Origin: a candidate division FCPU426 bacterium
Lineage (GTDB): Bacteria; Oederibacteriota; JAAXVQ01; JAUVAV01
DNA length: 64,000 bases
Direction of reading: 5' to 3'
NCBI GenBank assembly: GCA_040756875.1
Contig: JBFLYH010000001.1
Location: 160,001-224,000, forward strand
Part shown: positions 58,409-64,000 of the stretch, in pieces
Position numbering within the stretch: position 1 is the first letter of the stretch
How the letters are laid out: every line of letters starts with the position of its first letter
Translations under genes and position numbers: made by a program
The notes under the pieces: generated by a model
The model's input: only the letters and a program-made list of their open reading frames with translations
Told to the model about the DNA's origin: nothing
Database searches by the model: none

Positions 58409-59091
58409 ACAACCTGGATATTTTCTGGCTGAAACCCTGGATGACGTTCATGAACGACGCGACCGCGTTTGCGCCAAAGATCGTGGCCGCGGTGCTGGTG
58501 CTGCTGGCCGGGCTTTTTTTCGGCTGGCTGGTCAGGAGCCTGGCGCACCTGCTGTTCCGCTGGATCAAGCTCGACCAGAAGGCAGGGGAGATCTGGCTGT
58601 TCCGGCTGTGGTCGCGGAGCACCCACGGGCATCTCTTGTCCGATTCCGGCGCCAACTTTTTCTTCTACGCGGTGATGTACGCGGCCATCCTGCTCGCCGT
58701 CAGGTTCCTGGGGGTGGGCGATACCGTGCTGCGCGCGCTGCTGGATCTCGTGCCCCGGGTTTTCGGGTTCATCCTGATCCTGCTGCTGGGCGCGCTGATC
58801 GCGATGTTCCTGTCCATCCTGACCCAGCTTTTCCTGGCCACGACCCGGCTGCAACATCCGAACTTCTGGGGCAAGGTGATCGCCTGGAGCGTTTTCGGCG
58901 TGACTATGATTTACTCTCTGGAGCAGCTGGGCCTGGCCGGCCGGTTCCTTACGCTGGCGGTGTTCCTGGTCCTGGGCACGGCCGGCCTGGCCGGCGCCCT
59001 GGCCTTCGGACTGGGCTGCAAGGACCTGGCGCGCGAGTTTTTGATCGAGTTGCTCAAAGAGGAGCATGGAAAAAACGGAACCCAAGAGTGA
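58405..59091 (+). CDS. MscS-related TM-helix (CmpX-like) membrane protein
   Basis: PKIVAAVLVLLAG, LEQLG, ALAFGLGCKDLARE; AGGAGG RBS. Confidence 0.75.
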   Translation: MNNLDIFWLKPWMTFMNDATAFAPKIVAAVLVLLAGLFFGWLVRSLAHLLFRWIKLDQKAGEIWLFRLWSRSTHGHLLSDSGANFFFYAVMYAAILLAVRFLGVGDTVLRALLDLVPRVFGFILILLLGALIAMFLSILTQLFLATTRLQHPNFWGKVIAWSVFGVTMIYSLEQLGLAGRFLTLAVFLVLGTAGLAGALAFGLGCKDLAREFLIELLKEEHGKNGTQE

Positions 59092-59845
59092 GCGCATGCC
59101 CGAGTCTTTTCATTTCCTGACCTCCATCCAGGCCATCGGGCTGACGGGCTTGCAGGCCCAGACCCTGGCCGAACTCTACCAGGGCCTGGAGCAGGTGGAC
59201 GGGTCCTCCATCTACCATCATACCTACCGTTTTTTGCGGTCCCTGCACTTCCTGCCGGACACCCCCCGCTCGGATTTCGCCTCCTGGCTCAGCGAGAAGC
59301 TGCGGGAGGAGGAGCTGGCCGAACAGATCGCCGTGCTGGACCTGCGCGCCTATCCCACGCTGCGGGACTTGCGGCAGGCGCTCCTCGCCATCATCGGCCG
59401 GGCGCGCAACGACCCGCGGCGCTGGACGCGCACTGCGCCGCCGGGAATGGAATTCCACTTTGGGCGTTCGACCAGCATCGTGCTTTCGACCGGCTACGAA
59501 GCGGCCGGCCAGCCTGAATTGGTGCACGCCCTGGAGCGGGTGGACGTGGGCAGCCTGTTTTTCCACCTGGTGGAGGCGCCGCTGCACCAGACCTCGCCCA
59601 GCCCCTGGAACAACGATTTCTCAGCCTGGCTGGACGGCCAGCTGCAACTGGGCGCCGAAGCCAAGGCGATCGCCGCGCTGGACGTCTACCAGCTGGATTT
59701 GGAAACCATCCGGGAGCGGATGATCGCCATTCTCGGCGGCAAAAAATGGCAACGCGCCTTCCGGCGCGCCCTAGACCGTCCCGGACCGTCCTCGCTGTCG
59801 CCCCTGGTGCGCGGCTGGCTGCGCCGGTTCAAATCCAACCCCTGA
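59066..59845 (+). CDS. DUF5752 (OrfY-like) protein
   Basis: Internally duplicated: SSIYHH...SDFASWL and SLFFHL...NDFSAWL. Confidence 0.8.
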   Translation: MEKTEPKSERMPESFHFLTSIQAIGLTGLQAQTLAELYQGLEQVDGSSIYHHTYRFLRSLHFLPDTPRSDFASWLSEKLREEELAEQIAVLDLRAYPTLRDLRQALLAIIGRARNDPRRWTRTAPPGMEFHFGRSTSIVLSTGYEAAGQPELVHALERVDVGSLFFHLVEAPLHQTSPSPWNNDFSAWLDGQLQLGAEAKAIAALDVYQLDLETIRERMIAILGGKKWQRAFRRALDRPGPSSLSPLVRGWLRRFKSNP

Positions 59846-59853
59846 GGCTGCCC

Positions 59854-61089
59854 GTGGCGTCCCCCCTTTCCGAATACCGCAAACTGATCGGCGAGACCGA
59901 ATACCAGCTGCTGTGGAAGCTCGGGGCGACCTTGCGCGGGTTGCGCGTGGTCATGGTCAATTCGACCCGCGAGGGCGGCGGCGTGGCCGAGATTCTGCAA
60001 AACCTGGTCCCGCTTCTGAACGAACTGGGCCTGGACACCACCTGGGAAGTCATCGGCGGCGCGCCGGAGTTTTTCAACGCCACCAAGACCCTGCACAACG
60101 CGCTGCACGGCCGGCCGGAGCCCCTCACGCCGGAGATGCTCGCGGCCTATGACCAGGCCACGGAAGAAAACAGCCGCCGCCTGCGCGGCGCGCTCAACCG
60201 CGACCTGGTGTTCATCCACGACCCCCAGCCGGCCGGGCTGATCCAGGCGCTGCGGAAGCCCGAGCAAAAGTGGGTTTTCCGCTGCCACATCGACCTCTCC
60301 AACCCGTATCCCGAGGCCTGGGAGTTTTTGCGCGCGCACATCGCGGCCTACGACGCCTCGGTCTTTTCCCATCCGCGGTTCGCCCAGAAATTGGAGCACC
60401 CGCAGTTCATGATCGCGCCGTCCATTGACCCGCTCTCGGACAAGAACCGGGAGCTGCCCGACTCCCTGGTGCGGCAGACCCTGGAGCGGTTCGGCCTGGA
60501 CCCCGAACGGCCGCTGGTCACGCAGATCTCGCGCTTCGACAAACTGAAGGACCCGCTGGGCGTGATTGCGGCCTACCGGTTGGTCAAGAAAACGCACCCG
60601 GACGTGCAGTTGCTCCTGGCCGGCGGCGGCGCCAGCGACGACCCCGAGTCCGGCGAGATCCTGGCGCGCCTGCGCGAGGAAGCCGGGAAGGACCCGGACC
60701 TGCACCTGCTGGACCTGCCCTCGGGGTCCAACCTGGAGATCAACGCCCTGCAGCGGGGCAGCACGGTCATTCTCCAGAAATCCCTGCGCGAAGGCTTCGC
60801 GCTCACGGTCAGCGAGGCGCTGTGGAAGCGCAAACCCGTGGTGGCCTCGGACGTGGGCGGCATTCCCCTGCAGATCCTGCACGGCAAGACCGGCTGGCTG
60901 ACCTATACGGTCGAAGGGGCGGCCTACTACGTCCGCCGCGTGCTGAACAACCCGGCCGAATCCCTGGCCCTGGCCAAGTTCGGACGGGAGCATGTCCGCC
61001 GCAATTTCCTCATCACGCGGCATTTGCGCGAATATATCAGCCTGTTCCATTGCGTGCGCCAGCCGGGCCAAAATATCATCCGCTTGTGA
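59854..61089 (+). CDS. treT: Trehalose glycosyltransferring synthase (GT4)
   Basis: VNSTREGGGVAEIL, TKTLHNALHG, IHDPQP, RCHID, SRFDKLKDP, DDPE, QKSLREGFALTVSEALWK; GTG start inferred. Confidence 0.88.
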   Translation: MASPLSEYRKLIGETEYQLLWKLGATLRGLRVVMVNSTREGGGVAEILQNLVPLLNELGLDTTWEVIGGAPEFFNATKTLHNALHGRPEPLTPEMLAAYDQATEENSRRLRGALNRDLVFIHDPQPAGLIQALRKPEQKWVFRCHIDLSNPYPEAWEFLRAHIAAYDASVFSHPRFAQKLEHPQFMIAPSIDPLSDKNRELPDSLVRQTLERFGLDPERPLVTQISRFDKLKDPLGVIAAYRLVKKTHPDVQLLLAGGGASDDPESGEILARLREEAGKDPDLHLLDLPSGSNLEINALQRGSTVILQKSLREGFALTVSEALWKRKPVVASDVGGIPLQILHGKTGWLTYTVEGAAYYVRRVLNNPAESLALAKFGREHVRRNFLITRHLREYISLFHCVRQPGQNIIRL

Positions 61090-61273
61090 TCCCCCCGGCC
61101 GAAGGCCGGGGTACCGCGAAATAACCTTGCCTCATCCGCCGCCCGTCCCTTTTCCCGCACTGCCGGAATTCTTCAGGTTATAATCGTGTCCCGACGATCC
61201 TATCTCTGTCGTCGGACAGGTGACAGATCCGCAAGCCTGCGGTGTTATATCCCTTGGGAGGGGAAGCGGTTCG

Positions 61274-61762
61274 ATGCCCGTGGATATCGAGTCCTATTAT
61301 CGAAAATACGGGCCCATGGTGCTGAGGCGCTGTCGGACGCTGCTGCGCCATGAGGAGTGGGCCCTGGACGCCCTGCAGGAGGTCTTCGTGAATCTGCTGC
61401 GCCATCAGGAACGGCTCCACGACGCTTACCCCTCCAGCCTGCTTTACCGCATGGCCACCCGCGTGTGCCTGAACCTGCTGCGGACCCGGCGGCGCAAGCC
61501 CGAGACGCCGGACGAGGCCCTGCTGCTTTCCATCGCCCACGAGCCGGAGACGGAAAACCGCGTGCTGGCGGGCGCGATCCTGGACCGCCTGTTCGCGCGC
61601 GAACGCCCCTCCACGCGCGCCATGCTGGTCATGCTGTACGTGGACGGGCTGACGCTGGAGGAAGTGGCCAGGGAAACCGGATTGTCAGTCTCGGGCGTGC
61701 GCAAGCGCGTCCGGGAATTCAAGGCCAGGGCCCAGGCGGAAAAGGAGCAAAACCATGGCTGA
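61274..61762 (+). CDS. ECF sigma factor
   Basis: YGPMVLRRC, DALQEVF, LYRMATRVCLNLLR, DGLTLEEVA...SVSGVRKR; GGGAGG RBS. Confidence 0.93.
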   Translation: MPVDIESYYRKYGPMVLRRCRTLLRHEEWALDALQEVFVNLLRHQERLHDAYPSSLLYRMATRVCLNLLRTRRRKPETPDEALLLSIAHEPETENRVLAGAILDRLFARERPSTRAMLVMLYVDGLTLEEVARETGLSVSGVRKRVREFKARAQAEKEQNHG

Positions 61763-62528
61763 CCAGCTCCCGGATTATCTTTTGGAGCGCTATTTGCTGG
61801 GTGAGTTGCCGCCCCGGCGCCTGGCCGAGATTCGCGCGGCCTTGGAACAGGACGCGGATGCCCGGGAACGCCTGGAAGCATTGCAAGCCTCGAACGCCGA
61901 GATTCTGCGGCAGTATCCCGCGGAGCGCATGGCGCCCGCCATTCAGAAACAGCTGGAACGCGAATCCCCGGCTCGGGCCAGGGGCTGGCAATGGCTTCCG
62001 GTGTTTTCCCTGGCTGCGGCGGCGGTTGCCTTGCTGGCCGTGGCGCCGGTCGTGGAACGCGCCCTGTTCGCGCCCGCGGACACGACCCGGCTCAAGGGCA
62101 GGGACATACGCCTGGTGGTCTACCGCAAAGAAGGGAACCAGGCCATGCCCCTGGCCGACCAGGACCGCGCCAGGGACGGAGACCTGCTGCAAATCGCCTA
62201 CGCCGTGCCGCCCGGAACCCACGGCGTCATTTTCTCGCTCGACGGCGGGGGCAAGGTCACCCTGCACTTTCCCGCCGCCCCGGAATTCTCCACCCTGATG
62301 CCGCAGGGCAGCGGGAAGGTGCTGCTGCCCGTGGCGTATGAATTGGACCGCGCCCCGGGGTTCGAACGCTTTGTCCTGATGACCGCGCCGTTTGAACTGC
62401 AGGTTCCGGCCGTGCTGGCCGCGGCCCGCGAGGTGGCGGCTGACGGCCGCACTGCCCGGACCCGGCCGATTCCCGCGCCTGCGGGCGCGGAACAAATCAC
62501 ACTGGTCTTGACAAAGGACACGCCATGA
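61755..62528 (+). CDS. Membrane anti-sigma factor (ActD-like, extracytoplasmic DUF4384-type domain)
   Basis: LLERYLLGEL anti-sigma start, one TM helix, GDLLQIAY, SLDGGGKVTLHFP, LDRAPGFERF; overlaps both neighbours. Confidence 0.8.
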   Translation: MADQLPDYLLERYLLGELPPRRLAEIRAALEQDADARERLEALQASNAEILRQYPAERMAPAIQKQLERESPARARGWQWLPVFSLAAAAVALLAVAPVVERALFAPADTTRLKGRDIRLVVYRKEGNQAMPLADQDRARDGDLLQIAYAVPPGTHGVIFSLDGGGKVTLHFPAAPEFSTLMPQGSGKVLLPVAYELDRAPGFERFVLMTAPFELQVPAVLAAAREVAADGRTARTRPIPAPAGAEQITLVLTKDTP

Positions 62529-64000
62529 AAACCATCCGCCTGTTTCTTCTGCTGAACGCGTTTGTGCTGGCGGCCGCGGTCCCGGCGCCGGCGGCGCCGC
62601 AGGATTCCATGCGGCGTTTTGCCCTGGTGGTGGGCGCGGACGACGGCGGCCCGGAGCGCGGCCGCCTGCAATACGCCGAATCCGACGCCCGGCTCATGAC
62701 CCGGCTGCTGCAGAAGCTCGGCGGCGTGTTCCCCATTGATTGCGTTTTTCTCCTCCAACCCGACCGCGAGCGCCTGCTCGGAGGGTTCAGGGATTTACAG
62801 GAAAAAATCCGGCGCGCCCGGGAGACGGCCAAAAGAATCGAGCTGGTTTTTTATTACTCCGGCCATTCGGACGAGGAAGCCGTCCTGCTGGGACAGGACA
62901 GGTTGTCGTATCAGGAGATCAAGCGCAGCCTCGACCGCGTCCCGGCCGACGTCAGGATCGCCATTCTGGATTCCTGCTCTTCGGGCGCTTTCACGCGGCT
63001 CAAGGGCGGCCAGATGCGGCCGCCGTTTCTGCTGGACGAAGCGAACGACATGAAAGGCAGTGCCTATCTGACCTCGAGCGCCTCGGACGAGGCCTCCCAG
63101 GAGTCCGACAAGCTGCAAAGCTCGTTTTTCACGCACTTCCTGACTTCGGGCCTGCGCGGCGCGGCGGATACGTCCCAGGACGGCCGCGTTTCCCTGCATG
63201 AGGCCTACCAATACGCCTATCACGAGACCTTGAACAAAACCGAGAAAACCCTGGGCGGCCCGCAGCACCCGAACTACAACATCCAGATGACCGGCACCGG
63301 CGACGTGGTGATGACCGATATCCGCAACAGCTCGGCGATCCTGACCTTTGACCAGGACCTTTACGGCCGGTTCCTCATCCGCGACCAGAACGAGCGCATC
63401 GTGCTGGAGATGCGCAAGCCCGAGGGCCGCAGCCTGCAAATCGGCCTGGAGGAGGGCGTTTACCAAGTCAGCAACGAAAGGGACCAGCGGCTGTTCGAGA
63501 CCCGCGTCGAGCTGACGCTGGGCCAGGAACTGGTGTTGAACGCGGCCGCCTTCGGGGAGGTGGCGCGCGAGGCCGCCCGGCTGCGGGGCGAGGAACCGGC
63601 GCCCGAGAACAAGTTTGCGGCCCCGGGCTACCAAGTCGTGCCCTGGGACGTGACGCTGGTCCCGGATTCAAACCGCTACGCGCGCACCATCCATTACTGC
63701 GTGCTGGGCCTGGTGGGGAGCACGAGCGCCAAGCTGGACGGATTCGCCCTCAGCCCTGGGCTGAGCCTCGTGATCGAAGAGGCGCGGGGCGTGCAATGCA
63801 CGGGCCTCGGCAATTCAGCCGGCCGGGAGATGGAAGGGGTGCAGCTGGCCGGGCTCTTCAACAGCTGTGCAGGAAGCATGAAAGGCGTGCAGTCCGCCGG
63901 GATCCTGAATTCGGCCAAGGGGCAGATGGCCGGCGTGCAGGCGGGCGGCGTTCTCAGCCTGAGCCAGGGCGCGTTCTCCGGCCTGCAGAGCGGAGGGGTT
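62525..64000 (+). CDS. Exported caspase-family (peptidase C14) protein with C-terminal GVQ repeats; 3' end beyond the window
   Basis: Missing from the ORF track because it has no stop. My translation: signal peptide MKTIRLFLLLNAFVLAAAVPAPA, RRFALVVGAD, LQYAESDA, FYYSGHS (His 62864), ILDSCSSG (Cys 62975), SQES, SFFTHFL.SGLRGAAD. Confidence 0.92.
   Translation, partial: MKTIRLFLLLNAFVLAAAVPAPAAPQDSMRRFALVVGADDGGPERGRLQYAESDARLMTRLLQKLGGVFPIDCVFLLQPDRERLLGGFRDLQEKIRRARETAKRIELVFYYSGHSDEEAVLLGQDRLSYQEIKRSLDRVPADVRIAILDSCSSGAFTRLKGGQMRPPFLLDEANDMKGSAYLTSSASDEASQESDKLQSSFFTHFLTSGLRGAADTSQDGRVSLHEAYQYAYHETLNKTEKTLGGPQHPNYNIQMTGTGDVVMTDIRNSSAILTFDQDLYGRFLIRDQNERIVLEMRKPEGRSLQIGLEEGVYQVSNERDQRLFETRVELTLGQELVLNAAAFGEVAREAARLRGEEPAPENKFAAPGYQVVPWDVTLVPDSNRYARTIHYCVLGLVGSTSAKLDGFALSPGLSLVIEEARGVQCTGLGNSAGREMEGVQLAGLFNSCAGSMKGVQSAGILNSAKGQMAGVQAGGVLSLSQGAFSGLQSGGV
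63740..64000 (+). repeat. 15-residue coding repeats (G-[VL]-Q-x-x-G-x-x-N)
   Basis: GVQCTGLGNSAGREME / GVQLAGLFNSCAGSMK / GVQSAGILNSAKGQMA / GVQAGGVLSLSQGAFS / GLQSGGV; 45-nt period. Confidence 0.85.

Follow-up and report, generated by a model that had tools for sequence, protein, structure and literature searches.

Within a 64,000-nucleotide (nt) stretch of DNA from a candidate division FCPU426 bacterium (contig JBFLYH010000001.1, positions 160,001 to 224,000; the whole stretch is called the window below, and positions are counted from its first letter), three overlapping genes encode a sigma factor of the extracytoplasmic function (ECF) type, a single-pass anti-sigma factor, and an exported protease of the C14 (metacaspase-fold) type, and a short motif ending in a basic residue followed by Gly recurs at one site in the anti-sigma factor and at two in the protease. 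The reading favored here, to which a probability of about 0.55 is given, is a cascade in which one protease would make three cuts, opening its own loop, releasing itself from its tether, and performing the site-1 cleavage of the anti-sigma factor, whereupon an RseP-type protease would act, leading to sigma factor release with positive feedback. The sigma factor would be held at the inner membrane (IM) by the anti-sigma factor, while the protease, which is of the metacaspase type and predicted to cut after Lys or Arg, would be exported and hung beneath the outer membrane (OM) via a β-solenoid and an eight-stranded barrel. On some cue, it would open its loop at the K160-G161 bond, then free itself from the tether at R354-G355, and subsequently cut the anti-sigma factor at K114-G115, in the stretch that joins the membrane helix to the Ig-like domain in the periplasm. 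The resulting stub would become a substrate of an RseP-type site-2 protease, and the sigma factor, once released, would drive its own operon from the promoter GTGACA-N16-GTGTT and, in the source genome (G000), also an ExbB-ExbD-ExbD-TonB-receptor operon. We infer each of these cleavage events, as well as their order and the signal; an RseP-type M50 protease is encoded in the same genome (PF02163, E 5.5e-67; C2:341507-342769).

The sigma gene (61274..61762, + strand) encodes 162 amino acids (aa) and matches Pfam Sigma70_r2 (E 6e-11) and Sigma70_r4_2 (E 3e-7) as well as the NCBIfam model TIGR02937 (56.2 bits versus a cut-off of 42.9); with regions 2 and 4 only and a small size, the product is an ECF (group IV) sigma-70 factor. 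Its open reading frame (ORF) could alternatively open at GTG 61220, which is the -35 element of the promoter, and the likely start is therefore ATG 61274. The anti-sigma gene (61755..62528, +; 257 aa) overlaps the sigma gene by 8 nt and is overlapped in turn by 4 nt (ATGA) by the protease gene (62525..64000, +, onward to 64747 beyond the window; 740 aa; PF00656). An arrangement of three overlapping, co-directional genes for an ECF sigma factor, an anti-sigma factor, and a C14 protease had been described in the original prediction, which was made from the sequence alone, and it is borne out by the ORFs and domain matches.

The motif is found as T111-R-L-K114-G115 in the juxtamembrane part of the anti-sigma factor (62085..62099, +; residues 111-115), where K114-G115 is the candidate site-1 bond. 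In the protease, T157-R-L-K160-G161(-G162) lies in the loop after the catalytic Cys151 (62993..63007, +; residues 157-161), with T157 six residues past the Cys, as a candidate self-processing or self-inhibiting site, and A351-R-L-R354-G355 lies in the linker at the junction of the protease module and the OM tether (63575..63589, +), as a candidate release site cut at R354-G355. The positions at which these pentapeptides (TRLKG twice, ARLRG once) were originally placed are exact on rechecking. For the source genome's pair, 1245 of 5000 residue shuffles share a 5-mer somewhere between the two proteins, and the pentapeptide match in one genome therefore proves nothing alone; when the comparison is limited to 15 positions past the Cys and 20 past the membrane helix, the expected number of matches falls to ~5e-4. 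As judged from the alignments, it is conservation across homologues that shows the motif to be far more than chance. Homologues were compared at 86 anti-sigma loci, including those of relatives together with the best 80 of 102 confirmed loci (from 126 pattern matches; one genome per species), and in an independent set of 150 sequences, the best representatives of separate clusters at 50% identity within a library of 1.84 billion proteins.

At the anti-sigma site, K114 and G115 are kept in all 86 sequences, R112 in 75, T111 in 53, and an acidic residue (E/D) at P6 in 65; the cluster representatives behave alike, with K in 150/150, G in 149/150 (one Ala), R in 139/150, T in 81/150, and E/D at P6 in 117/150. 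In the caspase loop, K160, G161, and G162 are present in all 81 sequences, R158 in 79, and T157 in 58, with Ala in another 19. The linker site of the same 81 proteins retains R354 in 80 and G355 in 79, with T (50) or A (19) at P4 and E/D at P6 in 65. The pattern common to all three sites is thus T-x-x-[K/R]-G, with an extra P3 Arg in two of the three and with P6 E/D shared by the anti-sigma and linker sites. The original idea, which depended on the motif being conserved in homologous anti-sigma factors and expected R-x-[K/R]-G at three positions, is sustained with respect to the basic-Gly pair at all three, whereas the first Arg is a feature of only two (the linker has it in 9/81). Distant paralogous trios from three myxobacterial genomes carry the anti-sigma/caspase pairs VRLKG/TRLKG, NRIKG/TRTKG, VRIKG/TRLKG, and VRVRG/GRTKG, and a very divergent trio has GEKG in the anti-sigma factor and GIKAG in the caspase, the P3 Arg being gone from both. 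From one species to another, the length of the anti-sigma linker varies by tens of residues, and its columns outside the motif are unconserved.

The protease consists of, in order, a signal peptide, a caspase domain (residues 29-268), an Ig-like domain (~245-345), a linker, a β-solenoid (370-590), and an eight-stranded barrel (589-740). Pfam Peptidase_C14 (PF00656) aligns with residues 30-227 (E 8e-12; 45.7 and 44.5 bits versus a gathering cut-off of 21.4). The AlphaFold model, built with an 81-row alignment, reaches a mean pLDDT of 90, with values below 50 only in residues 21-26 (the signal-peptide junction), 161-173 (right after K160), and 353-358 (around R354-G355). Structural alignment of the caspase domain against the whole bank (VIA-align) gives Arabidopsis metacaspase 4 (AtMC4) as the best match (Z 21.0, rmsd 2.8, 207 residues aligned), and further matches include caspase-9 (Z 19.5), MALT1 (Z 18.8), and GSU0716 (Z 17.6). 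Foldseek returns Yca1 and MALT1, and its alignment of the latter over ~400 columns of the protease suggests a caspase-plus-Ig arrangement. With the Pfam match, the His-Cys dyad, and the caspase-haemoglobinase fold, the protein is a member of C14 (caspase/metacaspase fold, clan CD).

The dyad, originally reported as intact, is made up of His114 (codon 62864..62866, +; S112-G-H114) and Cys151 (codon 62975..62977, +; D149-S-C151), and both residues, along with S112 and D149, are invariant (81/81). S112 and D149 take the positions of Ser84 and Asp137 of AtMC4, and D54 aligns with the Asp of the metacaspase 'ND'; E189, E193, and D195, candidates for the acidic residue of the p10-like part, are also conserved and may correspond to AtMC4 Asp352. 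As described in the available part of the AtMC4 report, Ser84 and Asp137 line a negatively charged pocket that holds Lys225, a lysine of the linker that is lodged between the catalytic residues while the enzyme rests and is the first to be cut when the enzyme processes itself on activation (bioRxiv 10.1101/2020.03.09.983940). Because S112 and D149 match the pocket around Lys225, cutting after Lys or Arg is predicted for the protease, and K160 has a precedent. Sequence and analogy together support a metacaspase/orthocaspase type with an acidic S1 pocket, and the basic P1 preference that had been proposed for the enzyme agrees with the invariance of these pocket residues.

The C-terminal half of the protein probably forms the tether. 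The β-solenoid begins within the window (63632..64000, +, running on past its end) with GVQ repeats of the LA_2272 type, as indicated by NCBIfam NF047436 (33.8 bits versus a cut-off of 25, residues 550-575), by the strand pattern, and by β-helix matches. Residues 381-617 align structurally with the right-handed β-solenoid of the antifreeze protein 3p4g (Z 20.3), and also with TPS and autotransporter passenger folds. The barrel, whose eight strands extend across residues 591-739 and which terminates in ...AYSF, resembles the OprF N-domain (Z 16.2), NspA (14.6), PagL (14.0), and OmpA (14.0), as well as OprH and OmpW, and the model is consistent with an OmpA-like eight-stranded OM barrel serving as an anchor domain. 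Barrels of eight strands with a C-terminal Phe are anchors rather than autotransporter pores and keep the N-terminal part of the protein in the periplasm, so from the topology of such OM proteins the protease module is expected to be periplasmic. The solenoid is absent from short forms in Acidobacteriota and Aminicenantes, in which the R-G pair stands directly before a barrel-like domain; the site is always at the junction of the protease module and the anchor, short forms included. Given the solenoid and OmpA-like barrel folds and the absence of the solenoid from short forms, the repeat domain reads as a spacer or tether. It had been taken for a sensor, which finds no support here; the repeats themselves are real, forming the β-solenoid, and continue past the window into the barrel. 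Geometrically, release from the tether could allow an OM-anchored protease to reach a site ~15 residues from the IM.

In its AlphaFold model (mean pLDDT 87), the anti-sigma factor is composed of a cytoplasmic helical sigma-binding part (residues 7-70), a membrane helix (~79-103, with 86-103 helical in the model), a flexible linker, and a periplasmic Ig-like β-sandwich (119-254), and the motif falls among the low-confidence residues that connect the membrane helix to strand 119. No Pfam family matches the protein, and two NCBIfam anti-sigma models align to residues 9-109, both below cut-off. An N-terminal helical domain, one membrane helix, and a gene beside that of its sigma factor place it, on the modelled structure, among class I single-pass anti-sigma factors. 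Foldseek finds weak generic Ig-sandwich matches only (RhoGDI, TM 0.3-0.5), and therefore no specific ligand can be deduced. A zinc-binding anti-sigma (ZAS, H-x3-C-x2-C) was considered and rejected, with Pfam zf-HC2 at E 0.055 only and neither His nor Cys in residues 1-60. A DdvA-type anti-sigma was likewise rejected: the 257-aa protein has an Ig-like domain only, without TPR-CHAT, and the protease has a gene of its own. When the alignments of the anti-sigma factor and the caspase were compared profile to profile, with the question of whether their Ig-like domains are related, no meaningful match emerged (probability 0.5%). Complex prediction for caspase residues 25-345 with the periplasmic part of the anti-sigma factor (98-257), each with its alignment, gave a score of 0.05 against a mark of 0.32, which counts neither way.

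Several observations weigh against the three-cut cascade. The co-variation between partners that was originally expected is not seen: P2 varies freely, and for P2 and P3 no convincing co-variation between anti-sigma factor and caspase was detected, apart from two anecdotal co-losses of the P3 Arg (L085 and L102). Among the 11 anti-sigma factors without the P3 Arg, 10 are paired with a caspase that keeps it, and one reverse case exists. Moreover, C14 proteins with no sigma or anti-sigma gene nearby carry a basic-Gly pair 8-14 residues past the Cys (ARG in L101, SRG in L106, SRGG in L114, and TRGG in G017 (L097); 4 of 9 such proteins inspected by eye), so the caspase-side motif predates the trio, is more widespread than it, and could be a general feature of structure or maturation. 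The motif is also kept in anti-sigma paralogues that have no caspase next to them (L006, L058, L079, and L080), although their genomes hold such caspases elsewhere, and the caspase locus of Myxococcus stands without a neighbouring sigma gene. Finally, the K-G pair is four residues before the first Ig-like strand of the anti-sigma factor, where a structural role is possible. In bacterial C14 proteases generally, Arg-Gly(-Gly) after the Cys may mark a loop for self-processing or self-inhibition; the present family is distinctive in that the anti-sigma factor and the tether linker copy the motif of the caspase loop.

Such observations could be extended to the view that all three motifs are structural, K-G capping the edge of the Ig-like domain, K-G-G shaping the post-Cys loop, and R-G acting as a hinge, with their likeness resulting from convergence on small, common residues. 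The basic-Gly pairs past the Cys in unrelated C14 lineages, the insignificance of a shared 5-mer in one genome, and the proximity of K-G to strand 119 fit this view. On the other hand, all three sites reside in the lowest-confidence loops of otherwise good models, where the least structural constraint is expected, the fold offers no easy account of the common T at P4 and E/D at P6, and the invariance spans no fewer than 150 clusters, within a linker whose length varies by tens of residues. A purely structural origin is accordingly regarded as very unlikely.

The genes of the trio are closely linked. The caspase gene is directly downstream of the anti-sigma gene in 81 of the 86 loci, the misses being L006, L058, L079, L080, and L065 (a contig end), and 51 of the 81 anti-sigma/caspase junctions have a 4-nt overlap. 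A sigma gene is upstream in 73/86 loci, once on the opposite strand; of the 13 misses, four fall at the start of a contig and another eight, of the Myxococcus type, truly lack an adjacent sigma gene. The records that hold trio loci bear the labels Myxococcota, Spirochaetota, Acidobacteriota/Aminicenantes, Fibrobacterota, and others, and the anti-sigma profile matches 2303 clusters at 50% identity with E<=1e-30, the family including Myxococcus xanthus, a tractable model. Among the source genome and 40 relatives, the anti-sigma factor and the orthologous caspase occur in the same 5/41 genomes, and neither was found in either search of the same-genus genome G001; this patchy distribution suggests that the unit has been gained or lost as a block. 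The linkage on which the original prediction was built is therefore conserved.

It is also conceivable that the caspase is merely a co-transcribed effector, for example in envelope remodelling or cell death, while the basic-Gly sites are cut by an HtrA/DegS-, Prc-, or trypsin-like protease or are not cut. In favor of such a role, [K/R]-G is a site of the generic tryptic type, the paralogues that lack an adjacent caspase still carry the anti-sigma motif, and operons of this kind were put in a cell-death frame in the available text of Asplund-Samuelsson et al. 2012 (PMC3501461). It is countered by the fact that only the trio genes travel together, apparently gained and lost as a unit given their presence in the same 5/41 genomes, that in the 80 loci no further gene for a protease is conserved alongside, and that the overlapping next gene encodes a protease with matching Lys/Arg pocket residues. 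An effector role alone is therefore judged decidedly unlikely.

In several lineages, the components are distributed differently. In Myxococcus and Pyxidicoccus, the system seems to be divided between two loci with the promoter motif and an R-I-K-G motif in common: one with a sigma factor, an anti-sigma factor, and a 202-aa barrel-like protein but no caspase (L058, L079, and L080), and the other with the promoter, anti-sigma factor, and caspase but no sigma factor (L016, L024, L027, L029, L030, L039, L050, and L054); Myxococcus genomes hold several such caspases. L006 (G014:C10:38201-38956; L116:8202-8963) is an orphan second anti-sigma paralogue with the motif TRTKG, situated directly after ExbD-TonB and ~5 kb downstream of the trio, at the place of the TonB-dependent receptor in G000. 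In addition, a myxobacterial gene (L035:3225-4415) upstream of a sigma gene encodes a solenoid/barrel-only protein that is like the C-terminal part of the caspase without the protease domain, and it is preceded by the promoter motif (L035:3203).

The ECF-type promoter GTGACA-N16-GTGTT (61220..61246, +) is 27 nt 5' of the sigma ATG. In its strict form, GT[GA]AC[AG]-N16-GTGTT, the pattern is found in 43/65 sigma upstream regions, always with a 16-nt spacer and 38-116 nt before the sigma start, while spirochaete loci have a variant of it. Across the 80 fetched loci (0.77 Mb), it occurs 74 times versus roughly 1 by chance, the chance rate of ~4 per 6.4 Mb being derived from the base composition of G000; in the whole G000 genome, it occurs 6 times versus ~4 expected, with the exact GTGACA hexamer in two. 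The second exact copy (C1:224929-224955, corresponding to window 64929-64955 and L087:4929-4955) is in the 386-nt gap after the caspase gene and before ExbB, and the genes behind it (L087:5134-9488) encode ExbB, two ExbD proteins, TonB, and a TonB-dependent receptor (CarboxypepD_reg + Plug). G012 and G014 have this second promoter in front of ExbB as well. Since promoter copies stand before either the ExbB operon or genes for small OM-protein-like products, the regulon is predicted to comprise the trio operon itself and OM/TonB functions that vary by lineage. Cell-surface signalling of the FecI/FecR/FecA type, considered for the adjacent TonB system, was rejected, as the anti-sigma factor has no FecR match and the receptor matches CarboxypepD_reg and Plug only. 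A scan of the operon for sigma-70-type promoters and terminators revealed no promoter-like site and no convincing terminator past the caspase gene.

The small products just mentioned are exported proteins of 206-260 aa with the ends ...FGYF, ...FGFF, and ...LGW, and the motif faces their genes in G003 (L115:8253-9110), in G014 (L116, minus strand, ~12737), and in spirochaete loci (for example, L072:3792-4454, minus strand). The short-form caspase of L046 has a barrel anchor domain similar to these proteins, which seem to be recurrent members of the regulon. When homologues of the promoter-bearing proteins of G003 and G014 were sought in G000, only a 23%-identical relative was found, and its gene lacks the motif.

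The promoter also bears on a further explanation, namely that the motif in the anti-sigma factor serves as a pseudosubstrate or for docking, such that the periplasmic region of the anti-sigma factor holds or inhibits the caspase, whose real targets would be other envelope proteins, in the manner of the inhibitor-protease pair of securin with separase. Release of the sigma factor would then not be driven by a cut at K114-G115, or information would run from the anti-sigma factor to the caspase. The conservation of the motif fits this as well, and because the operon is predicted to be self-induced through the promoter motif, the caspase would itself be among the outputs of the sigma factor. In addition, a Lys of AtMC4 can occupy the active site without being cut and thereby inhibit the enzyme, as far as the available part of that report describes (bioRxiv 10.1101/2020.03.09.983940). 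However, pseudosubstrate sites usually deviate at P1 or P1', whereas K-G here is identical to the caspase's own loop, and a flexible linker between the membrane and a globular domain is the classic site-1 position of regulated intramembrane proteolysis according to the portion of the source at hand (PMC11506125). This explanation is thus considered unlikely, and the three-cut cascade is preferred.

Around the trio, the overlapping or antisense ORFs at 61357-62298 (+), 61719-62495 (-), 62198-62758 (-), and 62795-63634 (-) have no Pfam match and are treated as shadows of a GC-rich coding region. Directly upstream are genes for a DUF5752 protein (59066-59845, +) and a TreT-type trehalose synthase/glycosyltransferase (59746-61089, +); as listed, the two overlap by ~100 nt, and they are not conserved beside the trio in other loci.

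Caspase homologues are abundant in bacteria, but to our knowledge hardly any has been assigned a substrate or a function in the cell's physiology, and for most ECF sigma groups neither the site-1 protease nor the signal is known. The trio family offers a concrete pairing in this respect, with a named protease, three predicted scissile bonds (K114-G115, K160-G161, and R354-G355), and a promoter that may serve as the readout. If the cascade is true, both its class of site-1 protease and its signal route from the OM to the IM would be new. One may go further and speculate, tentatively and at odds that are well below even, that the caspase is a releasable periplasmic messenger, a single protease with three cognate sites carrying an OM signal to transcription. 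It would wait beneath the OM on a rigid β-solenoid, open its active-site loop, sever its tether, and then diffuse to the IM to cut the anti-sigma factor. Were this the case, prokaryotic caspases would gain a signalling rather than a death role, the output being TonB-dependent uptake here and small OM proteins in other lineages.

With regard to what has been reported, the literature search found no paper on a separate C14 protease as the site-1 protease of an anti-sigma factor. Operons combining sigma-70 factors and metacaspases were listed by Asplund-Samuelsson et al. 2012 in M. xanthus (four), Anaeromyxobacter, Haliangium, Sorangium, Ralstonia, and Fibrobacter (PMC3501461). That account, in the text available, concerns co-occurrence only and contains no anti-sigma factor (the word appears 0 times), motif, tether, or mechanism (PMC3501461). 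The linkage of sigma factors with metacaspases and the regulated proteolysis of anti-sigma factors are hence already known, and what would be new is a dedicated, OM-tethered caspase-fold protease as the candidate.

The site-1 proteases that act on RseA and RsiW are serine or metallo-proteases, anchored in the IM and without a dedicated third gene. By comparison, the trio candidate would be a caspase-fold cysteine protease that is anchored in the OM and possesses matching self-sites. What the trio is proposed to share with the RseA-DegS-RseP and RsiW-PrsW pathways, as outlined in the accessible part of the source, is the site-1 cut of a single-pass anti-sigma factor followed by an M50 site-2 protease (PMC11506125). 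As an enzyme, the caspase is closest to AtMC4, its best structural match (Z 21.0), in which Ser84 and Asp137 of the pocket correspond to S112 and D149 and a linker Lys in the active site is, by the available description, the first self-cut. AtMC4 differs in being eukaryotic, cytosolic, and Ca2+-activated with a long linker domain, whereas the candidate Lys of the trio caspase is only 9 residues past the Cys.

Among the closest regulatory systems is DdvS/DdvA of M. xanthus, in which a periplasmic TPR-CHAT domain fused to the anti-sigma factor has been proposed, in the part of the report available, to cut the juxtamembrane linker in trans before RseP acts (PMC11506125). As in the trio, an ECF sigma factor is held by a single-pass anti-sigma factor, a caspase-superfamily His-Cys domain is located in the periplasm, and a cut in the linker is the proposed site-1 event; in DdvA, however, the TPR-CHAT is fused to the anti-sigma factor and has an incomplete active site, such that cutting in trans within a dimer, itself a proposal, is invoked in the available text (PMC11506125). 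The trio, in contrast, would employ a separate C14/metacaspase-fold protein tethered to the OM, and its anti-sigma factor has a small Ig-like domain only. A caspase-like protease directed against a sigma-binding inhibitor is also known from Craspase, in which Cas7-11 together with the TPR-CHAT protein Csx29 cuts Csx30 and frees the ECF sigma factor RpoE, as cited in the accessible part of PMC11506125. As proposed for the trio, an ECF sigma factor is thereby switched on, but Craspase is cytoplasmic, RNA-guided, and CRISPR-linked, uses CHAT instead of C14, and involves no membrane or envelope step. If the cascade holds, the gating of sigma factors by caspase-fold proteins, proposed for DdvA and shown for Craspase, would extend to a widespread, housekeeping-type envelope system.

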